Shown here piece after piece: positions 7,964 through 38,600 of a DNA stretch of 64,000 nt. A program made the position numbers and the translations under genes. The notes under the pieces are model-generated. The model worked only from the letters and a program-made list of their open reading frames with translations. It ran no database searches and had not been told where the DNA came from. How positions within the stretch are numbered: the first letter of the stretch is position 1; the number at the start of each line of letters is the position of its first letter. Source of the DNA: Escherichia coli (GTDB lineage: Bacteria > Pseudomonadota > Gammaproteobacteria > Enterobacterales > Enterobacteriaceae); the NCBI RefSeq assembly GCF_003018235.1, contig NZ_CP027437.1. One strand, 5' to 3'.

Positions 7964-8136
7964 AAAGTTCTTTTGCGCTGCATTGCTGGCGTAAATGTCA
8001 GCAATGCAGCATTTCCTCACGATTCTCCTTTGACGATCGCACTTTTTGCTCGTTATGATGGCGTCGCTAGCCTCAGTAAATCCTTACTCCGGCGGTGCGC
8101 AACCCGTGCGCGTGAACCACTATCTGAATGCTCATC

Positions 8137-24232: not shown

Positions 24233-25913
24233 CCCAGGCACGAGTCTTTGTCATCATTACCTGTGGTTCCAGTGTCAATTGCCCATCAACAAAACTGACA
24301 AAGCCAGAAACCAGACACACGGGGTCGTCTGTTTGTTGCAAAAGCGCCGCCATGCGTTCAACGGCATAAGGCGCGCTGGCTGAGGCTGGCAGTGATAACG
24401 TCAGCAGATTATCTTCACCTTCGCCGCTGATTACCTGCGCATCCAGCGTCTGGCGGCTGCTATCCCAACCGAGCGAAATACACTCAGCGACCGGCAGAAT
24501 AAATAAGTTATCGACCTGATTAAGAGGCCGTATGCAGGCGGGGGGGCGCTGGTGTAAATATTCCCGCAAAGCCACAATGCCCGGCTGGCGTAACGGCGCG
24601 CTCAACATTTGCCAGGCAACAGGCGACAGCGGCACAACGCTGCTTAATCGGTTGCGGGTAGCTAACAGCAGCTCGCCATCGGCACTGCGTTTTGCTGCTT
24701 GTGAAATAATTTGCCCGCCCGCCAGTGCGCCAGCCTGAAAACTAAACAGCCGACGCGTAGCTGCCGGTGAGTTTTCCTGTTCACTTCGCGGCCAACTGCG
24801 CGAAAGGTGCAAAATACTGCCGGTGTCGGGATCGGTAAACCAGATGCGTAAACCATAATGCTCAATATCCTGCCAGCAACGCATACCTAAAGACACCAGC
24901 CGCAGATGATCAAGCTTTGCTTCTCCGGCAATGCCAGAGCCAACGACCGTGCGCCACGGCACAGGAGGAACTTCACCAACACTGTCGCGCCGGGCCATCT
25001 CTTGTGCGCAATTTAATCGACTGTTTAATGCCGCAAGCTGACGTAAGCATTCTCCGGTATGATAGTGGCTGGCGCGGGCGTGGAAGGCATCAACGCTGGC
25101 GCGCAGTTGCCGTAGCGATTCACTCACCCATCGCCAGTTGCAGCGTTCCGCTGCTTGCTGCGCGCGGCTGAAAGCGGCCTCGTAGTGAATAAGCGGCTGG
25201 CTGATGCCGCCCAGCCATAATGCCTGGCTTAGTTGCTGAACATATTGACGACACGTTTTGCCTTCTTCGCTGGCAAACGGATCGTCAGATGATGTGACGT
25301 GTTCGCTGCGCATCTGCCAGATTAAATGAGTCAATTCCGCTTGCTGCGCTTTTGCCTGGACAAAGGCCTGTACTGCCAGTACGACATGTTCGCAAAGTGT
25401 GCCTTCAATACAATCACAACGGGCGAAACGAATGCTGCTACGGGAATAAAAACGCACATCGCTCATCGGTAAGCGGGCAGAGGGAATTTCGCCCGGCGTA
25501 CAGAACAACTCAATGGTGATGCCTTTAGCGACCAGCGCCTGTGCGCGTTTGCGGGTGGTATCGGGCAGGGTAGCCAGTTCTTCCAGCCAGATTGCCGGAT
25601 CCCACTCTTCTTCTTTTTCCGTGGGCTGGACGGTGGCACAAAGTCGTTGATAACTTAACACCAGCATCACGCGATGACGGCACATGCCGCTGGCCCCGCA
25701 GGTGCACTGAGCCTCTTTCAGTGCCTGGCCGTTCGCCAGCTGGGTACGGACACCGTCACTGAAGGTGGCGATTAAAGCGCCGTTCTCATGGCTGATTTCC
25801 GGGACGTTGCCATTTTCCAGTTCCTTAAGGCTGCGCTTAACAAAACCGGCATTGCTTAACGCCGTCAGGGCCTGCGGTGTCAGTTCTAATAATTCCGGAC
25901 GTAGTGAATTCAT
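24233..25913 (-). pseudogene. yehQ: yehQ 5' portion (SWIM zinc-finger protein), truncated by the IS100-like insertion
   Basis: ORF 24213..25937; start ATG complement 25911-25913 overlaps the yehP stop (ATGA); SWIM-type Cys/His motifs CTCGASGMCRHRV and CDCIEGTLCEHV; the last six codons plus stop derive from the IS end. Confidence 0.8.
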
Positions 25914-27046
25914 GACTGAAGATTCTCCGCAAGCCATGATGCCAGTTCGCCCGGTGTCATGGCGGCTATTTGTGCGCCGACATTAACCAGCGCCTGGGCC
26001 GTATCGCGGTCATAGCAAGGCGTTGCTGTGCTATCGAGCGCTGCCAGTCCCAGCACTTTGATGCCGCTCTGGACACACTTTTTCACCTGATGCGTCAGCA
26101 ATGATGATGAACCTCCTTCATAAAAATCGCTCACGAGGATAATGACGCTTTTTGCTGGTTGTTCAATAAGTTGCCGACCATACTCCACGGCACTGGCGAT
26201 ATTGGTCCCGCCGCCCAACTGTACTTTCATTAATAACTCTACCGGATCGGCAACGTCTGCCGTGAGATCAACGACGCTTGTGTCAAACGCCACCAGATGG
26301 GTACGAATGCCGGGTAACTGCCACAAACAGGCCGCCATCACCGCAGAGTGGATCACCGAATCGACCATCGAGTCGCTTTGATCAACCAGTAAGACCAGTT
26401 GCCATTGTTCGCTTTGGCGTTTAATGCGGCTGTTAAAGCGGGGGGATTCGATATACAACTTGCCGTGTTGCGGGTGCCAGTGTTGCAGGTTGGCGCGCAG
26501 AGTACTTTTGAAATCAAAGTTTCGCGCCAGTGGAATAAATGAGCGGCGACGGCGATCGCGGACACCAGAAAAAGCCTGACGAACTTCCTTTGCCAGTCGA
26601 GCCATAATTTCTTCAACAACCTGGCGCACTATCCGGCGGGCGGCAGCCAGTACTTCGGGATTCATCAGATGTTTGGTGTGCAAAACGGCGCGTAGCAGGC
26701 TTTCAGAAGGCTGCATACGTTCCAGCACGTCGAGATTCGTCACCACATCTTCAATGCCATAGCGCAGTACGGCATCGCTTTCCAGCCGCTCAATCACCTG
26801 TTGCGGAAACAGCGTGTGAATACTGTTGATCCACTCAGGAGTGGTGAGATTTGAGCCACCTAATCCACCAGAGCGTTCACCACGCTGGAGCCGTTCAGGA
26901 TCGCGCCCATACAGCCACTCCAGCGCGTGGTCTATCTGCCGGGCGTTGTCATCCAGCCCACAAAGCGTCGTTTCTGCCGCTTCGCCAAGAATTAATCGCC
27001 AGCGTTGTAGCTCACGGGTGGTCAGAAGATCGTTCAGTTCAGACAT
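25910..27046 (-). CDS. yehP: von Willebrand factor A (VWA) domain protein
   Basis: ORF 25910..27274; start at MSELNDLLTTRELQRW, 378 aa; MIDAS-like motif LLVDQSDSM (DxSxS). Confidence 0.88.
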   Translation of the reverse strand: MSELNDLLTTRELQRWRLILGEAAETTLCGLDDNARQIDHALEWLYGRDPERLQRGERSGGLGGSNLTTPEWINSIHTLFPQQVIERLESDAVLRYGIEDVVTNLDVLERMQPSESLLRAVLHTKHLMNPEVLAAARRIVRQVVEEIMARLAKEVRQAFSGVRDRRRRSFIPLARNFDFKSTLRANLQHWHPQHGKLYIESPRFNSRIKRQSEQWQLVLLVDQSDSMVDSVIHSAVMAACLWQLPGIRTHLVAFDTSVVDLTADVADPVELLMKVQLGGGTNIASAVEYGRQLIEQPAKSVIILVSDFYEGGSSSLLTHQVKKCVQSGIKVLGLAALDSTATPCYDRDTAQALVNVGAQIAAMTPGELASWLAENLQS

Positions 27047-29318
27047 GGAAAACTCCCCAGTGTTGCAGCGATGCCAGTGCCTGCTGTTCGAGTTGTTGAT
27101 GATGTGCAATGGCTTGCGGAGGACAATGCAACGGCATTTGCAGCGCTGAAACAGGAAGCTGCGCAAGCTGGTAATGCTCAAGCACCTGATGCGCCAGTGT
27201 CCCGCGTTCTCGTGGCGGTAGCCAGGCCATCGCCGCGCGCAAATCGGGCAGGGCGTTAATAAAATCGTCGTCACTCAGTTGATTTAAATGACTACTGAAA
27301 CCGGCGATAAATGCTGGTTGGCAGGCCAGTTGATGACGGGCGAGCGCCAGCAAACCGTGCAGCGCCTCGCCGGATTGTGCCGGGGATAACTGCGCCAGCA
27401 TCGTCAGCGCCGCTTCGGCACTGGCGTTGGGATGTTCCAGACGCATCAGTGCGCCAAGAGCCGCGCCGCGATCCAGCGCCGGGACATGAATCGCCTGACT
27501 GCGTCGCTCCAGTAAGGCTACCGCCGCAGAAAGCGAAACGCCGGGTAAATTAACGCCGCTATGTAGATCGCGCAGGATATGGCAAAGCGCCTGCCAGCTA
27601 TGCAGGTGAGTGTGAAACTCCTTTTCATCTGGTCTGCCGTTAGATTCACACAGCCACAGCGTGCGATCGATAGCCGCGCATAACGTCGTTTGTAATATCT
27701 GCGCGCTTTGCATACCGCTAATTTCATCCAGCCGCCATAAGGCATATAGCACTTCCAGCGCCTGGCCCATTTCGGCAAATTGATTTTCCTGGGCGATTAA
27801 TAATGTGAGTTGCTCCAGTAATTGTTGACTGAAGGACGCCAGACCCGCTAACGCCGCCTGGCTTAGACATGCGGTAATGCTGCCGATTCCACCCGCGTCC
27901 AGCATATCGGCTTCTAATTTATTGCGTGCGGCTTCCTGGAGCGTGGCACCAAAGCAGGCGGCCTCAATTAATGCCGCATGCTGGCTAAGCGGGCGGGTTA
28001 ATTTCCAGCGTTCTTCACCGTTGCCTGCAAGTGTCAGTGTGCTTCCCTGCTGGCGTACAATCCCTGGGATCTCCAGTATTGCCAGCCGATGTAACACCTG
28101 ACTTTGCGCTAGTCCATTGGGGTTAAAGCGATTTAAGGTAAGCTCCGCCGGAAGGGAGATTGCGGTACGTTCCAGTTCGCAGGTGACATCTTTTGGCAGA
28201 GGCGGTTGTGGCGTAGAAGGGGCAAGTTTACCGAATCCGTCACCCGCTAATGTGTCTATCAACGTTAGCAGAATCGGATCGGTATCGGGATGAATAATGC
28301 CGCGATAGCTCCATGGCAACGGCGCATTCAGGGCTTCTTTAATCAGCGAGCCTGCTAAGGCATCCAGCCAGTCAGTGCGTAACGGCAGTGTATGACCGCG
28401 CAACTGTGCCAGCGCCATCGCATGCAGATGAGCGGCAGCCATATCCGCGGTCGAAGCAGGCAAGTGGTGTTGGCGCAAACGGGTAAGAACCGTTTTTAGC
28501 AGTTGTTCTCCCGCCTGCTGTAAGCCCCACTGCCAGCACCAGCTTTGCCAGACCGGGGCAGGCATTCCGGAAAGGTATCCTGCCAGCACATCAAGGCGCT
28601 TTTCACTGTAGGGTGTGAGATAACAACCTGTAACGGCATCTGCCAGCGACGGCAATTCTGGCGTGTTAATTTCCTGCGGACATTCGCGCCACATTTTTGC
28701 CAGTGCCGGAGCGTGCCAGCCACCGCAGACAACTAACACGTCGCCATTATTTTGCTGCACCGCCCATGCAATCCAGCGAGCCATAAAGGCTTCGCGCTGA
28801 CGATTGAGTGCATCGCCGGGGAAATCGCCCCGCAGTTGGGCAAAATAGTGTGCCAGTGCAGAGGGTAATGCAGTTTGCTGGCTTTCATCTTCGAACAAGT
28901 GATCCCACAGGGTATCGCTGTTATCCATGCGGGCGGCACGCAGCAGCAAGGTCTGGCTTTCCTCTTGCGTATCAGGCGAATCGTCCTCTTCTTCACTCTG
29001 TGCCCAGCAAGGCAAATCGATGAAGTAAGTTTGTGCCTGAATACGACGAGCGGCTTGTAGCGCCTGCCACTCCGGCGAAAATTCAGCAAATGGCGTCCAG
29101 GCACCACGCCCGGGGGCTGCACCGTCCTGATACTGGCAATAACTGTAAATAGCTACCGGAAGCTGGTGGGCTAAAAACAGTTCGTCTACCCGGTCATTAA
29201 AATCAGCCGGGCCTTCAATCAACACGTATCGTGGCCGCTGGCTTTCGATTAACGATTTCACCAGCCGGGCGCAGGCCGGGCTATGATGCCGGATGCCGAC
29301 AATTAACGGCTCGCTCAT
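27039..29318 (-). CDS. yehM: Large uncharacterised protein of the yehLMPQ cluster
   Basis: ORF 27039..29486; start at MSEPLIVGIRHHSPACARLV, 759 aa; overlaps the yehP start by 8 nt. Confidence 0.85.
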   Translation of the reverse strand: MSEPLIVGIRHHSPACARLVKSLIESQRPRYVLIEGPADFNDRVDELFLAHQLPVAIYSYCQYQDGAAPGRGAWTPFAEFSPEWQALQAARRIQAQTYFIDLPCWAQSEEEDDSPDTQEESQTLLLRAARMDNSDTLWDHLFEDESQQTALPSALAHYFAQLRGDFPGDALNRQREAFMARWIAWAVQQNNGDVLVVCGGWHAPALAKMWRECPQEINTPELPSLADAVTGCYLTPYSEKRLDVLAGYLSGMPAPVWQSWCWQWGLQQAGEQLLKTVLTRLRQHHLPASTADMAAAHLHAMALAQLRGHTLPLRTDWLDALAGSLIKEALNAPLPWSYRGIIHPDTDPILLTLIDTLAGDGFGKLAPSTPQPPLPKDVTCELERTAISLPAELTLNRFNPNGLAQSQVLHRLAILEIPGIVRQQGSTLTLAGNGEERWKLTRPLSQHAALIEAACFGATLQEAARNKLEADMLDAGGIGSITACLSQAALAGLASFSQQLLEQLTLLIAQENQFAEMGQALEVLYALWRLDEISGMQSAQILQTTLCAAIDRTLWLCESNGRPDEKEFHTHLHSWQALCHILRDLHSGVNLPGVSLSAAVALLERRSQAIHVPALDRGAALGALMRLEHPNASAEAALTMLAQLSPAQSGEALHGLLALARHQLACQPAFIAGFSSHLNQLSDDDFINALPDLRAAMAWLPPRERGTLAHQVLEHYQLAQLPVSALQMPLHCPPQAIAHHQQLEQQALASLQHWGVFHV

Positions 29319-29328
29319 GCATCTTTCC

Positions 29329-30417
29329 TCACGGCAGGCGGTGGCGGGCTTGATAATAAGCCTGCCAGTGAGCTTCTTTATGTGTGGCGACTCGCTGTTC
29401 GAAGTAACGGCGCAGACGAGCGCGATCTTCTTCGTTATCTTTGACGATGGTTCCGGCAATACAGTCCACCAGATCGGCTGGCTCACCTGCGCGATTCGCT
29501 AAAAACCAGGCGCGGACGCCCACAGCGTGGGCCACGTTCACGGCTTCAGCGGTGGACATAATCGCTGTTAGTGTATCCATTGACGTTTTCTTTTCGCCGT
29601 TGGCACGCAGATCGCGGAAGGTGCGGACCAGTAACTCCAGTACCGCGTCAGGCACTTTATGCGGAATACCGCTATGGGCCAGCAAACGCGCCGAAGCACT
29701 GGCGACAAGCTCCAGCTCCTGGGCGAAATCCATAATCGGAAAGACAGTTTCAAAATCGAAGCGACGCTTTAGCGCGGCACTCATCTCATTGACGCCACGA
29801 TCGCGCGTATTGGCAGTGGCAATAATATTAAAGCCTTCTCGCGCATAGAGCTGACTGGCTTCACCAGTGAGTTCCGGCACCGTCATCACCCTGTCAGAAA
29901 GCATACCTAACAGACAGTCTTGCACTTCCAGCGGTGTACGCGTTATCTCTTCAAAACGGACGATTTTGCCGTCGCGCATTCCCTGGTAAAGCGGGGCAGG
30001 GACCAGCGCTTCCGTTGATGGACCATGATTGATAAGCAGGGCGTAGTTCCAGCCGTACTTGATTTGATCTTCGGTAGTAGATGCGCCGCCCTGGATGGTT
30101 AACCCGGCATCGCCGCTAATAGCGGTTGCCAGTAATTCAGACAGGAGAGATTTTGCGGTGCCAGGTTCCCCCACCAACATCAAACCGCGTCCGGTGGCAA
30201 GAGTGACTAACATACGTTCGACAGCGGAGGGACTAATCACCACTTTACGGCTAATATTTTGCGCGCTATCGCCAAGGATAAAAGCACGGGCCGCAGGCAA
30301 ACTTAACTGCCAACCGGGCGGGCAAGGTGCGTTATCATTTTGTTTTAATTTTGCCAGTTCATCGGCGTATAACACAGCAGCAGGCGGACGCTGCAGATGA
30401 TTATTCTGCGGTGACAT
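29329..30417 (-). CDS. yehL: MoxR-type AAA+ ATPase
   Basis: ORF 29329..30483; start at MSPQNNHLQRPP, 362 aa; Walker A GEPGTAKS, Walker B-like region. Confidence 0.88.
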   Translation of the reverse strand: MSPQNNHLQRPPAAVLYADELAKLKQNDNAPCPPGWQLSLPAARAFILGDSAQNISRKVVISPSAVERMLVTLATGRGLMLVGEPGTAKSLLSELLATAISGDAGLTIQGGASTTEDQIKYGWNYALLINHGPSTEALVPAPLYQGMRDGKIVRFEEITRTPLEVQDCLLGMLSDRVMTVPELTGEASQLYAREGFNIIATANTRDRGVNEMSAALKRRFDFETVFPIMDFAQELELVASASARLLAHSGIPHKVPDAVLELLVRTFRDLRANGEKKTSMDTLTAIMSTAEAVNVAHAVGVRAWFLANRAGEPADLVDCIAGTIVKDNEEDRARLRRYFEQRVATHKEAHWQAYYQARHRLP

Positions 30418-30528
30418 ATATTCATCCCTGAAATGTATTAATGAAATAAACGATATTTTACGCGCAATAAATGTTTGGCGCATTAGTTGTTTGAGCGAAA
30501 AATATCTGGAAAGCAGATCACAGTAAAT

Positions 30529-30625
30529 AAAAAAACCTGCTGGTGAGGCAGGTTCTTTTATTTACTATTTTCAGGCCTAACACCACAGCCTGTGCAACAT
30601 CGTGTTCCAACGAACGAATTATAAC
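30529..30625 (-). ncRNA. orzO: Candidate Orz-like antitoxin sRNA (copy 1), ending in hairpin acctgcctcaccagcaggt + U7
   Basis: Minus-strand intrinsic terminator at 30529-30552; body contains about 20 nt (complement of gcaacatcgtgttccaacgaacg) able to pair with the leader of the adjacent toxin mRNA (30757-30782). 5' end not determined. Confidence 0.5.
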
Positions 30626-30849
30626 CACGGCTGGACCCCGTTGCAATTAAGATAATGAGATTTATAATCCAGACCGTTGGGACGTTGCGCCGGATCGAAC
30701 CTATTTCAAGTCCTGGCTACCGGACGGGTGGTGCTGCAGGTGGTGCCCTGATCCGGGGTGCAACATCGTGGTCCAACATACGTAAACCAGTATCGACAGG
30801 CAGTGTAAGGGTAAGGTGCTGGTGTTGCGCTCCTTAATAAGAAGAGCGG

Positions 30850-30939
30850 ATGGACACGCTGACACAAAAGTTAACCGTGCTCATTGCTGTACTGGAGCTA
30901 TTAGTGGCTCTGTTACGGTTGATTGATTTGTTGAAGTAA
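30850..30939 (+). CDS. zorO: Type I toxin, Zor family: 29-aa hydrophobic peptide MDTLTQKLTVLIAVLELLVALLRLIDLLK
   Basis: Hand-translated; SD-like AAGAG upstream; followed by terminator hairpin; sequence matches my memory of ZorO from E. coli O157:H7. Assignment of O versus P to a given copy is arbitrary. Confidence 0.75.
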   Translation: MDTLTQKLTVLIAVLELLVALLRLIDLLK

Positions 30940-30960
30940 CGGGCAAATTGAAACGCATCT

Positions 30961-30989
30961 AAGGGGGAAAACCGCTTCCCCCTTTAATA
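30961..30989 (+). terminator. Intrinsic terminator after the toxin gene (aagggggaaaaccgcttccccctt + T-rich)
   Basis: Seen in sequence. Confidence 0.55.
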
Positions 30990-31134
30990 AAATGATTACT
31001 GTTTTTATTAATTCATCATATAACTCATTTTTATTTATAAATTCATCGATTTTATATTCAACGCACCATTTGACCGGGATGTGAATATTTATGGTGGGCT
31101 ATTGGCAAAAAATATCTGGAAAGTAGATCGCAGA

Positions 31135-31230
31135 AAATAAAAAAACCTGCTGGTGAGGCAGGTTCTTTTATTTACTACAGTGACGCTAACTTGCTGATTG
31201 TGCAACATTTCGTACCAACGAATAAATTAT
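31135..31230 (-). ncRNA. orzP: Candidate Orz-like antitoxin sRNA (copy 2), same terminator as copy 1
   Basis: Terminator at 31135-31164; pairing segment (complement of gcaacatttcgtaccaacgaata) matches the leader of toxin copy 2 (31367-31391) but differs from copy 1. Confidence 0.5.
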
Positions 31231-31457
31231 AACCATATCCACACTCCATTGCAATTCAGTGAGTGAGATTTATAATCCTGCCCGTTGGGAGGTTGTGCCG
31301 GATCGGACCAATTTTAAGTCCTGGCTGCCGGACGGGTGGTGCCGCAGGCGGTGCCCTGATCCGGAGAGCAACGTTTCGTACCAACATACGTAAACCAGTA
31401 TCGACAGGCAGTGTAAGGGTAAGGTGCTGGTGTTGCGCTCCTTAATAAGGAGAGCGG

Positions 31458-31547
31458 ATGGACACGCTGACACAAAAGTTAACCGTGCTCATTGCCGTAC
31501 TGGAGTTATTAGTGGCTCTGTTACGGTTGATTGATTTGTTGAAGTAA
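31458..31547 (+). CDS. zorP: Type I toxin, Zor family (second copy; identical 29-aa peptide with synonymous changes)
   Basis: Hand-translated; differs from copy 1 only at synonymous positions (GCT/GCC, CTA/TTA). Confidence 0.75.
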   Translation: MDTLTQKLTVLIAVLELLVALLRLIDLLK

Positions 31548-31568
31548 CGGGCAAATTGAAACGCATCT

Positions 31569-31597
31569 AAGGGGGAAAAACGCTTCCCCCTTTAATA
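31569..31597 (+). terminator. Intrinsic terminator after toxin copy 2 (aagggggaaaaacgcttccccctt)
   Basis: Seen in sequence. Confidence 0.55.
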
Positions 31598-31656
31598 AAG
31601 CTATACTCGTCATACTTCAAGTTGCATGTGCTGCGACTTGAATTATCTAGAGTATA

Positions 31657-31974
31657 TTATTCTATTTCTTGGTTGAATATATTCTGTAGTTCACGATTAA
31701 AAATTGCTATTACAGTTTCAGGTGATTCACCTCGTAATTTCCGCTCATCAATACACTCATCTCTTATATAAATCAACGCATCATTTATTAGCGGGTCAGC
31801 ATCTTCTCGATCACGTTGATGAAATGTTGGATGTAGCCGGAATCGCTCCAGTCGATAGACGGAACCTGTAAATAATTCAGAGCATTTATGGATCTCAAGT
31901 CTGAAGGAAAACGGATCTTCAGGTACAGGGACCTCATAATCGTAAATAGCAACCAGCTCTTTTTGCACGATCAT
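31657..31974 (-). CDS. yehK: Uncharacterised small protein (105 aa), AT-rich gene
   Basis: ORF track; position between yehI and the zor/orz units. Confidence 0.8.
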   Translation of the reverse strand: MIVQKELVAIYDYEVPVPEDPFSFRLEIHKCSELFTGSVYRLERFRLHPTFHQRDREDADPLINDALIYIRDECIDERKLRGESPETVIAIFNRELQNIFNQEIE

Positions 31975-32034
31975 CGCTTTCCCCGCTGGTAAGTCGTGTT
32001 GATAACGGGCAGTTGCATCACTGCCCGCTGTGTT

Positions 32035-35000
32035 TTAATGGAAAATGACGTCAGGTGCGCTTAACGCCTCACTCAAATCAAACACATCAAGTTCGGCAAA
32101 AGTGACGGATTTATTGTCACGGTACACTCGAAGAGAACGGAAGCTCATTAGCGCTTTGCTATCAACATTGTAGTGGTTAAAACCGGGTGAAAACTTAAGG
32201 ACCAGCCGGTACTCACCCAGGTCATAGACAAATGCGTCCTCATAGCCTGACTCCCAGCCTTTGTATCGCATTCCCATAAGTTGCCCAACGGTAGCGGATT
32301 TACCTTCCCAGCGAGTCAGGCTGTTACTGGTTGACTCGTCAGGTGTGAGCAGCACCGTGCGGCGCGACAACTGGCGAAAAGGCGGCATAATTTCGTAATC
32401 GGCAAAAAGCTGTGCAAATTCACTGCGCATTTCTGCTGTCATTTCTAACGGGTGGGCAATGCCAATCAGAGCATCCGCAGGAAGGTCAATGGGCTCATCC
32501 TGCGCATTGCAGAACTCCCCCTCTGCGGCCACACGAAAGGCGTTGAGTAAACGACGCGGTTCATTTGCCGGATAAACCCCCCATATTAATCGCTGGGTAA
32601 CCAGGCGGGTAAAGGGATGATTAACAAACAGAGAATGAAAATCTGCCAGCGACCAGCGTCGGGTGGTACGTAGGGCAGCTTCAAGACGCGGGAGCAGGTT
32701 TTTGCTCACCTGAGTAGCATCTTTTTTTAGCCCTTTTAGTCGGGCCAGTGCCTCGGGCGCTTTTAGTTGATCGTCATCGGCACGCAACCGGGGAACGCTT
32801 TTCTGGCGAACGTTTTGTTGATCAAAGGTAACCGGGTTGAGGTTTTCATCGAAGCGAACGGTAAACTGCCGGGGACCAAAATCAAAAATCAACGCCTGCG
32901 GATCATCAAGACCCAGTGTTGGGACTAATCTGTCCGCTAACTCTTCCTGGCTTAGCCCGCGATTTTCTGCGACCACCTGAAGAAATTCCGCTGCGTTTTC
33001 ACGTAATGAAGAGGATTTCGCCCGTTGTGATACATGATGCAGCTGTATCAGCGCCATATCATTATTCATCAAGGTAAGTATATTCAGACCAATGACAGCA
33101 CGGGCAGATTTGCCTTCTTGTGGCCAGGCGAGGATCTGTGTCGTCAGATCCCGAGCCGTGCTTTCGTCACCAAAGAGACTTAACGCCAGAAATGCCCAGT
33201 TGTCTTTTGCGGGGGCACCAGCTTGTTGCCACGCAGTGAAGAGATCCCAGGCAAAAGCGGCCAGCGTTTGTGGCTGGCAAAACGTTTTCAGTTGTTCCAG
33301 ACCGCTATAAAAACGTCCGCCCTGGGTAAAGCGCAGCATTTCGCCGATAATTTCCAGAGCGTCATCGGTAACAGGCTGATTATTAGTGATAAGTCGCGGC
33401 CTGGACCACATTGCCGGATGCCAGAAATCAGGGGCTTTTGGAATGCGTGCCGGGTAAATGTCCATTGGACCCTGTTTAAGCAACTGCTCCAGGGCAGGCC
33501 ATACATCAGCGCGTTGCCAGCGGTTTGCCACGGTTTGCAGCAACTCGCCATGTCCCTGTTCGTACAGTAAACGCAGGGCAAGTAATGCGGCTTCGCTATT
33601 ATCGCTGGGTTTGGTAAAGACAAGAGGGATAAGTGCAGTAGCCGTATGTTCCGGCCATTGTAAAATCCACTGGCGAGCCAGATCACGCTGCACCGCGAAA
33701 CGTCGCCAGACGCGGGCAACGGGCAGGGCCAGTTCTGTTGCGCCAAAATTTAAAATTAACGGAAATGTTTCTTTTGGACGATGTAAAAAAGCCAACATCA
33801 GACCTGGTAGCGCATCCAACCCGAGGATACTGAGAAAATAGTCCTCACCCGCGAACAGATGTTTTTTCTCATTGATACGCAGCCAGAAGGTCAAAGCCAT
33901 CTCACGCGGCAACTGTGCCAATAAATACAGGTTCCAGACACTCTTTTCCGGACGATAACGTGAGTAGTTGTCATTTTCCCATATGTTAATTAACGCTTCT
34001 TCGTGACCGCTGCGAAGCGCCTGTTCTGCTAATTGTGCTTCCGGGGAGTTCCAGCCATTCAGGATCTCTTCAACCCGTCCCTGGTAGTAATGCCACTGAA
34101 CAATGAGTGAATTGCGTGCAGCATCCAGTTTTCCGGGGAGTATATAATTCAGAAACAGCCATACATCATCCCCAAAACCCAGTTCCTGTAATACAACTCG
34201 TCCACTTTTTTGTTCCATGCGTTCCGCAAGAGATTCCGTGCTGAAATAACGGGCAGACTCAGTGGCGGCAAGCCTCTCTTGTTCGCCTGGTTGCCAGTAA
34301 ACTTGCGGGGTTAATTCGAGCGGTGCCAAATCAAGACGTGGAGCTGTCATTTTTTTCTTACTACGCCACGGTGGTGAAACGAGGATTTCAGGCAGATTGC
34401 TGTTATCGGTGCCATCAATAACCGGTTTGGGCGGTGCCAATAAATAACTATTCAGTACTGCCCGGGCTTGAGTACTTAACCACTGCATCACCTCTTCTGC
34501 CAGTTGTGTCTGCGATGCCATCAGCGTTTGTAACAACGTACGCCAGTATTCATCTCGAGCTTTTTGCTGGGCAGGCAGCTTTTTGTCTTCGATGATTGGA
34601 TAACCAGGGCGGGCTGGTGGTTCTTTTAACGCCAGCAGTTCTGCCAGTGCCGCGAGCGTCGCGTGGGGGAAGTTTTTACTGTATTTAGCCACACGTTGCA
34701 GGCTGGGTTTGTTTTTATCAGCAACTAACAGCAAGGTGCGGATGACTTGCGGATGGTTAATTTGTACCAGCAGACTGCCGCAATCTTCTTTATGGGCATA
34801 TATCGCGAGGCGCGGAACGACTGCCAGTCCTTGTTCGCGCAAAAGGGCAGCGCAGGCCGCGTAGCCGAAGTGGTTTTCATGCGACATGTAGCTGGCTTCT
34901 CGATCGCTAAATATATCCTGGCTCCAGTAGCGTTCGAGTTTTCTCACCGCTTTGGGGTCAGTAGCAACAACTTTTAACCACTCCTTAGAATGAAAATGAG

Positions 35001-35667
35001 TCCGCGGGCATTCAAGGCTTACCAACTCATTGGCGATTTCTGGTTTTTCGGGGAGGATCAGCGCAATAAAAGGGCGGCGAACTTTGGTTATTCCTGGCAG
35101 TGCGGCAATGAGTTTGTCGGCGCAACGCTGCCAGCAGCTTTCCTCTGCCAGAGAGAGGTGTTTACGCAGTCGGAGATCGAATTCGTTATAGGTTTCTGAG
35201 CGATAACCATAGCCATAGTCCTCGTTCTGATACTGCAATGTGACTACCAGAGGATCACTCTCATAACACCGTGCAATAAACTGGCGTGCAATCACCACCT
35301 CAGTCGCATATTCCAGCCCCTCTTGTTGGACGATTTCGTCGAGCAACTGTTGGCTGTCATTTTGCGCGATACAGGCTAGCGCCGCCATTGTGCGGGCCGG
35401 GACTGAGGGTTTGTGTTCGCCGATCAAGTTGATGGCCTGCGTAATGGCGGACTGCCACTCCAGTGAAAAATTTTCATAACGCCAGACAATGTTTTTTTTC
35501 TTCTCAGCTTTTTGTAGCAATTCATCACCCAGTGTCTGAATGATGCTTTCAGTGATAACAGGCACCGGTTCGCCCGGCCATTTGCGATGACTGAGTGGTG
35601 TTTTGCCTTTTTTATATTTCAGTTCCAGTTGGGCGTTATCCGCCAGCCACGGTAATTCCTTGTCCAT
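32035..35667 (-). CDS. yehI: Giant uncharacterised protein (1210 aa), molR/yehI family (DUF4132-like C-terminal region), lacks the N-terminal WGR domain
   Basis: ORF track 32035..35667; paralogous to the two upstream genes over most of its length. Confidence 0.88.
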   Translation of the reverse strand: MDKELPWLADNAQLELKYKKGKTPLSHRKWPGEPVPVITESIIQTLGDELLQKAEKKKNIVWRYENFSLEWQSAITQAINLIGEHKPSVPARTMAALACIAQNDSQQLLDEIVQQEGLEYATEVVIARQFIARCYESDPLVVTLQYQNEDYGYGYRSETYNEFDLRLRKHLSLAEESCWQRCADKLIAALPGITKVRRPFIALILPEKPEIANELVSLECPRTHFHSKEWLKVVATDPKAVRKLERYWSQDIFSDREASYMSHENHFGYAACAALLREQGLAVVPRLAIYAHKEDCGSLLVQINHPQVIRTLLLVADKNKPSLQRVAKYSKNFPHATLAALAELLALKEPPARPGYPIIEDKKLPAQQKARDEYWRTLLQTLMASQTQLAEEVMQWLSTQARAVLNSYLLAPPKPVIDGTDNSNLPEILVSPPWRSKKKMTAPRLDLAPLELTPQVYWQPGEQERLAATESARYFSTESLAERMEQKSGRVVLQELGFGDDVWLFLNYILPGKLDAARNSLIVQWHYYQGRVEEILNGWNSPEAQLAEQALRSGHEEALINIWENDNYSRYRPEKSVWNLYLLAQLPREMALTFWLRINEKKHLFAGEDYFLSILGLDALPGLMLAFLHRPKETFPLILNFGATELALPVARVWRRFAVQRDLARQWILQWPEHTATALIPLVFTKPSDNSEAALLALRLLYEQGHGELLQTVANRWQRADVWPALEQLLKQGPMDIYPARIPKAPDFWHPAMWSRPRLITNNQPVTDDALEIIGEMLRFTQGGRFYSGLEQLKTFCQPQTLAAFAWDLFTAWQQAGAPAKDNWAFLALSLFGDESTARDLTTQILAWPQEGKSARAVIGLNILTLMNNDMALIQLHHVSQRAKSSSLRENAAEFLQVVAENRGLSQEELADRLVPTLGLDDPQALIFDFGPRQFTVRFDENLNPVTFDQQNVRQKSVPRLRADDDQLKAPEALARLKGLKKDATQVSKNLLPRLEAALRTTRRWSLADFHSLFVNHPFTRLVTQRLIWGVYPANEPRRLLNAFRVAAEGEFCNAQDEPIDLPADALIGIAHPLEMTAEMRSEFAQLFADYEIMPPFRQLSRRTVLLTPDESTSNSLTRWEGKSATVGQLMGMRYKGWESGYEDAFVYDLGEYRLVLKFSPGFNHYNVDSKALMSFRSLRVYRDNKSVTFAELDVFDLSEALSAPDVIFH

Positions 35668-35676
35668 GCTCTTTCC

Positions 35677-38600
35677 TTATTCAAACAGGGCTTCAATATC
35701 GTTAATTAGCTCGCTGGCGGTGATGGCATCGAGTACGGAGAACTGCGCTTCCTGTGTTGAATTACTCCCCCAGCCATAGCTTTCCGCTTTGCCTTCCCAT
35801 AGCCACAGCTTGCTTAAGAGCTGCTCAGCGCTAAGTTCGGCTGGTGACATACCCACCGCAAAACCTTCGTCGATTTCCATGATTAACGACCAGCGACCGA
35901 GAGGTTTGATCATCCAGCCGATCCAGCCTCCATCCTGCGGGGTGCCCTTTATCCAGCCTTTATTCGCCAGCCCCATTACCCGACCGCTCGGGCATTTTCT
36001 GCCTGCCCAGCGGGTCAGTTCGCTGGCATTGCGCTCGGTTTCTGTCAGGGCGTAACTGTTACGGTCGAGCTGGCGGAACGGCGGTAGCAGTTCGTAGTCG
36101 GCAAAAAGCTGCCCAAATGCGGCGGCATCCGTCGGTGATATTTCCAGAACGTGAGGAATACCAACAGAGATATCGCCTTCCGGCAGGGTGAAAAGATCAT
36201 CGTCAGCGGTGCTGTAGCTGTTATCTTCCGCTACCCGGAAACAGGCCAGTAGCTGGTTGTCGGCGCTATAAACGCCCCAAATCAGACGGCGGGTTAAGTG
36301 GCGAACCAGCGGATGCACAACCAGGAAGAGTTGGAAGTTTTCCGGCGACCAGCGGCGGCGCAGGCACATGGCGGATTCAAGCCTTGCCACCTGCTGGGCG
36401 GCGACGGTACGCGCATCTTTTTTCAGCAGTTTGTAGCGGTTAACAGCATCGTTCGCCTGTGATTCATCATCGCTTTTGTTTGGTTTGGGCAGGTCTTTCA
36501 GACGGCTGCCGGAAGCGTCACGCACAAACGGTTTTAAGGTTTCATCAAAGCTGACGGTGAACTGGCGTGGGCCGAAATCCAGCAGCAACGAACCGTTATC
36601 ATCCAGACCGAGATCTGGTGCTAACTGATCTTCAAGCTCCGCCACCGTGAGTTCGCGACTTTCAGCAATGTCGGCAATTTTTTCTTTCGCCCGCTCCTGT
36701 AAAGCTTTGAATTTCAGTTTCTGAGCAATGCCGTTAAGCTGCATCAGAGCGATATCACTACCGATAGCGGCGAGGATATCAAGCCCGACGGTGGCGCGTT
36801 TATGCTGGGATTCACCAGGCCAGGCGCGTATTAATGGCGTCAGTTTGCGGGCGGTGTCATCGTTACCAAGAACGCCTAACGCAGCGAACGCCCAACTCTC
36901 TTTCGACGGCGCGCCCGCAGTCAGCCAGGCGGTAAACAGATCCCAGGCAAATTCAGCCAGTGAGTCGGCGGTACAGGCATCTTTCACCTGCAATAATCCC
37001 GGATACAGTGCCTCTTCCTGAGGGAAGCGGAGCATTTCACCGAGGTGCTGGAGTGCGCTATCGGGCAGTGATTGGGCGTTTGCTTTTAATACCGGGCGCG
37101 TCCAGAGCGATGGCTGATAAAAGGCCGGAAGAGTGGGGATTTTTGTCGGGTGATTATCTAAGGGATCGAGCGCAAGCAGAGCGTTCATCGCGTCTGTTAC
37201 TTCCGGCTGGTTATAACGCCGGGCGATTTCTTGCAGTAATGGCTGATGACCGTTTTCGCTAAGCATACGCAAGGCAGCGCGGGCGTTATCCTGTGCTTCA
37301 CCGGCTTTGCCGAGCGCGGCAGGCAGCAGGCCGGTAATGGCGTGTTCCGGGTATTTCAGCAGCCAGCTACGGGCGTCTTGTCGTAGGGTTTTGAGTTTGT
37401 TGAAGGCGCGGGCAATGAATGGAGCCAATTCGACAGCCGCGAAATATTGTGCCACGGGAAGAGCTTCCTGCGGATAGCGAGATGCTGAGTGGATAAAACC
37501 TGTTAAACCAGCAAGTCGAAGATGCAACATTACTTGTTTTGCACCTGTATGTGGTTCTTTACTAAGGATATTCCACATCTCAATAGCTTTATTTATGGGT
37601 AAAACATGGAGTGAAGAAAGCTTCCATTCGCCCTGATAAGGGGCGTTATAGGACTTAAAAGCATCGATCAAAGTTAAATAATCTTCACGCTGCCAAGCAT
37701 CCAACGCTATTTCTGGAATATCAATATAGCCTCTATGTTTGTTCCAATCCCAGCGGTCGAATCCCAGGGAATTCAGAAAACCTTTTTCTCCCTCTGCTTG
37801 CTGACGAGGTTGCCAATTATGCTGCACTTGAAGTCTTTTGCTTTTTGTTTCATTTATTGTACAGAAAGATTCCAGGGGTAATGGTGCTAAATCCAGCACT
37901 GGAATCGGCGATTTTTTCTTTTTAGCCTGCCACGGCGGTGAGACTAATACGGCAGGCAGCATATCGGCGTTCGCATAAACTGAAGGTTGTGTTAGTTGTT
38001 GCTGGCATGACTTAAGAACGGTAACTGTCGGGGCAGATAGCCAGGAGATCACCCCTTCTACTAATGTTGGTTGTGAGATAAGCATCGTCATTAGCATCAT
38101 GCGCCAGCGCTTTTCATCTTTTTGTGCCAGAAGTTCTGCTAATGCCGCCAGCGCTGCATGTGGAAAGCGAACGAAAGCCTTTGTCATGCGATCGTGGCAA
38201 CGCTTTCCCTGCTCACTTGCATGGATAAGTAGTGTAAGTGCTTGCGGGTGGTTGATATGCATCAACACTTCCCCACATGTGTCACCAGCAGCGTAAGGGG
38301 CAAAACGGGCCAACGCAGCGACACCTTGCTCCTTGAGTACTGTCGCACACCAGATTTTACCGCCGTAATAATCATCAAATACCTGCCCTGGCTGTCCTGG
38401 ATAGTATTACCCCAGTTCTGCCAATACCTGCTCGTCGGTGGTCGTCAGTTTTAGCCATTCCAGCGCATATACCCCTTTTTGTCCGCAAAGATGTCTGGCA
38501 ATCTCATGAGCTACTTCTGGTTTTTCCGGCAACAATAGTGCGACCAGCGGCTGGTTCCAGGCGGGCATGTTTCCGAGAGCGGCAATCAGTTTGTCGGCGC

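Follow-up and report, generated by a model that had tools for sequence, protein, structure and literature searches.

Two tandem zor-orz type I toxin-antitoxin modules between yehL and yehK in an Escherichia coli chromosome

Identification of the locus

The 64,000-nucleotide stretch of Escherichia coli DNA analyzed here (the window; NCBI RefSeq assembly GCF_003018235.1, contig NZ_CP027437.1) contains at positions 30529-31593 what is almost certainly the chromosomal zor-orz locus of this species, made up of two tandem type I toxin-antitoxin modules. From its sequence features, copy 1, beside yehL, is assigned as zorP-orzP and copy 2, beside yehK, as zorO-orzO. An earlier note on this DNA had proposed tandem zor/orz-like modules between these two genes; they turn out to be the zor-orz locus itself. 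The same note had attributed them to a family described in E. coli O157:H7, and this is indeed the locus of O157:H7, but the locus is not confined to O157:H7. Nothing found contradicts the identification. Prediction of the zor-orz system in 2010 was followed by validation in 2014 and dissection between 2017 and 2024, and Rfam has a separate family for it (RF02083; Fozo 2010, Wen 2014, Wen 2017).

Both modules encode the same peptide of 29 amino acids, MDTLTQKLTVLIAVLELLVALLRLIDLLK, as had been noticed, in open reading frames (ORFs) on the plus strand at 30850-30939 (copy 1, zorP) and 31458-31547 (copy 2, zorO). A comparison with known Zor sequences, which the earlier note had put forward as a check, showed that the peptide is 100% identical to ZorO as printed in PMC6669753 (section 4.3) and that both small RNAs (sRNAs) of the locus exceed the gathering score of the Rfam OrzO-P family. 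Both ORFs belong to the set formed by the ZorO sequence and its T3S and A20S variants, and the charged residues studied in PMC9860968 (D2, K7, E16, R23, D26 and K29) are all present. ZorP of strain EDL933 carries the T3S change relative to ZorO (PMC11264685), whereas copy 1 of the window codes for T3, the ZorO type; in the O157-like strain 28RC1, codon 3 of the copy-1 toxin is TCG (Ser). T3 in copy 1 is nothing out of the ordinary, since 72.5% of all zor ORFs have the ZorO sequence (PMC11264685).

The coding sequences of the two copies differ by two synonymous changes (codons 13 and 17) and by no non-synonymous change. Selection on the coding sequence, which had been proposed from the identity of the peptides, is consistent with these synonymous-only differences, but two changes are weak evidence and the non-coding parts (the leader from +103 and the 3' untranslated region, or UTR) are as conserved between the copies as the ORF (98-99%). 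Population data in which the 29-amino-acid ORF is intact in 99.5% of loci do argue for it (PMC11264685).

The repeat units extend over 30497-30988 and 31106-31596 and are 88.5% identical in a global alignment with a period of 608 bp, in line with the two units of about 500 bp, some 610 bp apart, described before. Annotated homologous genomes place them at the yehK-yehL site of E. coli/Shigella zor-orz: on the minus strand, the 3' part of yehL lies before 30420, and yehK (31657-31974) and then yehI lie beyond copy 2. The order yehK, z3289 (zorO), z3290 (zorP), yehL, deduced from gene order in K-12 together with the z-numbers, agrees with the assignment of the copies. The unit alignment leaves between the modules an AT-rich spacer of about 117 bp (30989-31105, no strand), which has no homology to the sequence 3' of copy 2 and is unique to the junction. 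In the RefSeq records of homologous regions that were examined, neither the zor toxin ORFs nor the sRNAs are annotated in this intergenic region.

Antitoxin RNAs and cognate pairing

Each unit encodes on the opposite strand a short RNA that, as claimed, ends in a strong hairpin followed by U7. An Rfam scan, repeated on the whole window, identified full-length matches to the OrzO-P RNA antitoxin family (RF02083, gathering score 60) on the minus strand of both modules, at 30529-30604 (99.9 bits) and 31139-31212 (88.8 bits). The orzP gene measures 83 nt (30529-30611, minus strand) and the orzO gene 81 nt (31139-31219, minus strand). Both RNAs (about 81-83 nt) fold into a 5' domain and a strong terminator (z = -3.6 for orzP and -3.1 for orzO), the latter being a 12-15 bp hairpin. 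The 86 nt at 30526-30611, which include the copy-1 sRNA, occur exactly in MG1655, the sRNA of which (OrzPmg) is reported to be 100% identical to EDL933 OrzP and has been seen by Northern blot (PMC11264685). Weak, sub-threshold Rfam matches of STnc370, Thr leader, Trp leader and isrH to these hairpins were dismissed as terminator or repeat look-alikes.

OrzO and OrzP differ in the V1 triplet (sRNA positions +9 to +11), which is GAA in the former and ACG in the latter and gives each sRNA specificity for its own toxin mRNA (PMC3919570, Wen et al. 2014). In copy 1 the minus-strand RNA from 30611 reads GUUGGAACACGAUGUUGC; the 5' end of orzP is GUUGGAACACGAUGUUGCAC, with ACG at +9 to +11, its +1 having been placed from the V1 register and the spacing to the -10 hexamer. 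In copy 2 the 5' end of orzO, read from 31219 on the minus strand, is GUUGGUACGAAAUGUUGC, with GAA at +9 to +11. Copy 1 is therefore orzP/zorP and copy 2 orzO/zorO.

About 20 nt of complementarity between each sRNA and the leader of the adjacent toxin gene had been reported, and both cognate duplexes bear this out. OrzP pairs with zorP over 19 of 20 nt, in a 6(1)13 arrangement with one A/G mismatch (duplex free energy -34.0 kcal/mol), and OrzO with zorO over 18 nt, comprising 17 Watson-Crick pairs and one G-U pair (-31.3 kcal/mol). Non-cognate duplexes contain four mismatches each and are 7-14 kcal/mol weaker (-20.1 kcal/mol for OrzP with zorO, -24.3 kcal/mol for OrzO with zorP), so that the cognate specificity associated with GAA in OrzO and ACG in OrzP is also predicted from duplex energies. 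The published threshold for functional pairing is an uninterrupted run of 15 nt or more, or 17 nt if a single internal mismatch is present; both cognate pairs reach it, copy 1 forming a 6(1)11 duplex within the first 18 nt, and an engineered OrzO with 6(1)11 pairing still represses zorO. A suspected conflict between the OrzP-zorP duplex and the "18 nt perfect complementarity" of the literature was dropped: that phrase refers to OrzO-zorO and evidently counts the G-U pair.

Divergence between the copies is concentrated where the RNAs interact. Identity is 65% in the 5' part of the sRNA, 75% in the promoter block and 74% in the target site, as against 98.6% in the leader from +103, 97.8% in the ORF and 98.0% in the 3' UTR. 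The covariation of V1 and target in the two copies shows that cognate sRNA-mRNA pairing is under selection, and hence that the repression circuit is maintained.

A third pairing-specificity allele was observed in the second module of strain EC10 (about 940-1460 of the record), with GCAACATGGCATCTCAAC on the sRNA side and GCAACATGGCGACTCAAC as target. It is probably the published zorQ/orzQ type.

Leaders, ribosome binding sites and terminators

The long untranslated leader attributed to the toxin genes was recovered. The zorO leader of EDL933 is 174 nt long, with the ribosome binding site (RBS) at +164 to +169 and an "exposed after processing" (EAP) region at +73 to +102 (PMC5397157). Mapping of these coordinates onto the window gives 5' UTRs of 174 nt on the plus strand at 30676-30849 (zorP) and 31284-31457 (zorO). 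The start sites, G30676 and G31284, were deduced from the published leader length and lie 7 nt after the -10 hexamers. In zorP the EAP region is at 30748-30777, the OrzP target at 30758-30777 and the RBS, AAGAAG, at 30839-30844. In zorO the EAP region (31356-31385) contains GGAGAG, the OrzO target at 31368-31385 (+85 to +102) lies inside it, and the RBS, AAGGAG, is at 31447-31452. When the leader is taken as 174 nt, the RBS occupies +164 to +169 and the copy-2 duplex stops exactly at +102, as published; the processed zorO 5' end lacking the first 28 nt (delta-28) would map to 31312. Of the Shine-Dalgarno sequences claimed for both ORFs, that of copy 2 is the canonical AAGGAG, while copy 1 has AAGAAG at the same position.

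Each toxin gene also ends in the intrinsic terminator ascribed to it, though the U tract is just 3 nt. Minimum free energy folds place these G/C-rich 9-bp hairpins on the plus strand at 30961-30985 for zorP (stem AAGGGGGAA/UUCCCCCUU, 6-nt loop, then U) and at 31569-31593 for zorO. The predicted mRNA measures about 310 nt from start site to terminator hairpin, or about 282 nt minus the first 28 nt, and these lengths match the reported zor transcript bands of about 310 and 280 nt (PMC3919570).

An ORF of 60 amino acids (MRFII...CCAP), found mechanically and conserved between the copies, crosses each zor leader on the plus strand (30655-30837 and 31263-31445). It overlaps the leader mapped as untranslated, for which the literature mentions possible small ORFs.

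Divergent promoters

A promoter scan of 30400-31700 detected exactly four sigma-70-like sites, all of them TTGCAA/TATAAT (10 of 12 consensus positions), the hexamers listed for both zor and orz (PMC11264685, Table 3). The copy-1 block (30618-30668) consists of the orzP -10 TATAAT at 30623-30618 (minus strand), TTGCAA at 30641-30646 and the zorP -10 TATAAT at 30663-30668 (plus strand); the copy-2 block (31226-31276) has the orzO -10 at 31231-31226 (minus strand), TTGCAA at 31249-31254 and the zorO -10 at 31271-31276 (plus strand). The two divergent promoters of a module share one -35 element, TTGCAA, a hexamer identical to its reverse complement; the spacer is 17 bp on the orz side and 16 bp on the zor side.

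Because one palindromic hexamer serves both promoters, toxin and antitoxin genes could compete for RNA polymerase. Polymerase binding at the two promoters would then be mutually exclusive on each DNA molecule, and a transcriptional either/or switch would be added to repression at the RNA level, here in combination with the weakened RBS of copy 1. This proposal, which derives from promoter geometry, is put forward with low confidence. Discussion of a shared -35 hexamer was not found in the text of PMC3919570 and PMC11264685.

Mechanism

All published elements are at the expected positions in both copies, and the mode of action can be described from zorO-orzO of EDL933. ZorO is a hydrophobic peptide that inserts into the inner membrane, and its overproduction leads to depolarization, ATP loss and growth stasis (PMC9860968, PMC6669753). 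The structured 174-nt leader of zorO mRNA sequesters the RBS; loss of the first 28 nt opens the EAP region, a putative ribosome standby site, and translation rises (PMC5397157). Pairing of Orz at the EAP region blocks translation and triggers RNase III-dependent decay, for which Hfq is not needed (PMC3919570, PMC5397157), and in EDL933 the growth arrest caused by toxin overproduction is rescued by the cognate sRNA (PMC3919570). The copies in the window would presumably be expressed and behave like their EDL933 counterparts: the leader of the full-length zor mRNA would limit translation, 5' processing would expose the standby site, and Orz would occupy that site, with translation blocked and the mRNA decaying via RNase III.

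Several observations weigh against this account of two functional modules. Copy 1 combines the non-canonical RBS AAGAAG, which results from a change at 30842, with an A-to-G change at 30757 that converts the conserved EAP motif GGAGTG (30754-30759) into GGGGTG, and given these variants its toxin output may differ. The fold of the full-length copy-1 mRNA is not significantly more stable than that of shuffled sequence (z = -1.3). The functional statements are carried over from EDL933 zorO-orzO, and zorP-orzP is less tested. In the literature, zor-orz has been linked to aminoglycoside tolerance and to carbon source.

Variants in copy 1

The closest complete genome for the segment, PS10-3 (99.5% identity), differs from the window by six single bases. 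The RBS variant raises the possibility, which we consider unlikely, that only copy 2 (zorO-orzO) is fully active and that copy 1 is attenuated or decaying, a step towards the antitoxin-only state of K-12. The AAGGAG sequence is conserved in 99.8% of 2,439 loci (PMC11264685), and AAGAAG in its exact 50-nt context is present in just one of 5,426 complete genomes, that of ET350, where the shared -35 is mutated as well (TTACAA); the searches for this and the EAP variant depended on the megablast word size. AAGAAG may lower translation, as the predicted duplex with the anti-Shine-Dalgarno sequence drops from -10.4 to -6.5 kcal/mol, and about 30% of E. coli already lack the toxin yet have orzP (PMC11264685). 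However, copy 1 retains an intact ORF, start codon, promoter, leader, target site and terminator. The EAP variant was found in none of the 5,426 complete genomes, and the idea of two independent mutations in copy 1 that both weaken translation was considered and rejected: GGGGTG still pairs with the anti-Shine-Dalgarno sequence in a shifted register and keeps or improves complementarity (-8.7 versus -6.6 kcal/mol). Thus, only the RBS change supports attenuation. Moreover, the flanks differ by 2-3% from the genomes best matching the zor-orz block, and with flanks merely 97-98.5% identical to the complete genomes examined, rare point variants are to be expected.

Biological role

Two tandem toxin-antitoxin modules remain the favored description of the locus. 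A further alternative, somewhat less probable than attenuation of copy 1, is that toxin-antitoxin action is not its main function in vivo and that its RNAs or peptide have another role (such as aminoglycoside tolerance, metabolic control or regulation of other targets by Orz), toxicity being an artefact of overexpression. The non-toxic ZorO variant R23L still improves growth in kanamycin (PMC9860968), an orphan OrzP is conserved and expressed in the toxin-free MG1655 (PMC11264685), and carbon source affects how the locus is expressed. This alternative concerns biological role and leaves the established identity and molecular mechanism of the parts unaffected, and the covariation of V1 and target indicates selection for cognate pairing. 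It is extremely improbable that the duplication is just an inert intergenic repeat whose small ORF and hairpins are fortuitous: ORFs of 29 codons readily arise by chance, but the sequences are identical to experimentally validated ones, the locus is conserved across thousands of genomes, the sRNA 5' end and its target diverge in a compensatory manner between the copies, and published Northern blots, toxicity assays and rescue experiments already refute it (PMC3919570).

Comparison with known systems

The zorO-orzO/zorP-orzP locus of EDL933 (O157:H7; z3289, z3290) shares with the window its yehK-yehL position, tandem order, ZorO peptide, OrzP sRNA, promoters, leader length, RBS position, EAP target position and the GAA of OrzO V1. 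Copy 1 of the window differs from it in having T3 in place of S3, AAGAAG in place of AAGGAG at the RBS and GGGGTG in place of GGAGTG in the EAP region; a few other single-base differences exist. Identity of the region to the O157-like strain 28RC1 is 98.8%, and this strain has the same 5' pairing domain of OrzO in all 18 pairing nucleotides.

The tisB-istR1 system of E. coli resembles zor-orz in its divergent sRNA with a short complementarity at the 5' end, in the 5' processing of the toxin mRNA, which uncovers a standby site well upstream of the sequestered RBS, and in an antitoxin that competes for this site and brings about cleavage by RNase III. However, there is no sequence relationship between the peptides or the RNAs, tisB is under LexA/SOS control, and the full-length mRNA can be translated in the case of zorO but is inert in that of tisAB (PMC5397157). 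The shoB-ohsC pair likewise has divergent genes, limited complementarity and a small hydrophobic toxin, but it is unrelated in sequence, and zorO escapes repression by wild-type OhsC (PMC3919570).

K-12 retains only orzP at the yehK-yehL site. In BW2952 and MG1655 the sRNA (OrzPmg) is that of copy 1 of the window, and it is accompanied by a promoter block with a few base differences, which has the same TTGCAA and TATAAT hexamers, and by about 28 nt of zor leader. Nothing from about +28 of the leader onward is present in K-12, so that target site and toxin ORF are missing, whereas both modules are complete in the window. The MG1655 RefSeq record has no orzP gene annotated in the yehK-yehL region. 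The toxin-free remnant was considered as a new observation and rejected as such, having been published as OrzPmg and as "orz-only" strains (PMC11264685).

The deletion that removed the toxin from K-12 ends within an ERIC/IRU-type element. In the window, a short repeat of this type occupies 31597-31660, directly after the zorO terminator; it has both ends without the central core, shows a weak Rfam isrH match and is present in several copies per genome. Strain E11 carries at the same site (about 843-990 of the record) a full-length ERIC that agrees with the core consensus at 40 of 44 positions.

Distribution among E. coli genomes

Some part of the query was matched in 5,424 of the 5,426 complete E. 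coli genomes searched, and 3,389 (about 62%) covered at least 80% of it, equivalent to one or two full modules. Many of the remaining genomes keep about 270 bp, the orz-only state seen in K-12. These results agree with the literature, where 25% of genomes have one copy, 42% have two and about 30% are orz-only (PMC11264685).

The surroundings are less conserved than the locus. Over 25815-35864 the flanks show about 97.2-97.6% identity to those genomes in which the zor-orz block finds its best matches (99.5%), and yehI (32035-35667) reaches at most 98.5% identity to any of the 5,426 complete genomes. The toxin-antitoxin locus is therefore better conserved than its neighbors, and the source lineage is not closely represented among these genomes.

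Other features of the window

Two further RNA elements were found on the plus strand, away from the locus: a Peptidase-S11 RNA motif at 8052-8132 (RF03039; 72.8 bits, gathering score 34.8) and a TPP riboswitch at 54297-54393 (RF00059; 71.2 bits, gathering score 54.3).

Significance

The zor-orz locus is already known in full, including what was met here in passing: antitoxin-only K-12, the third pairing allele and copy-number variation (mSystems 2024). The result thus has little weight as a discovery and is useful as annotation. The window provides a natural zorP-type module that combines the ZorO peptide with a rare RBS, and this module could serve as an allele for separating the dependence of toxin translation on the RBS from its dependence on the standby site.

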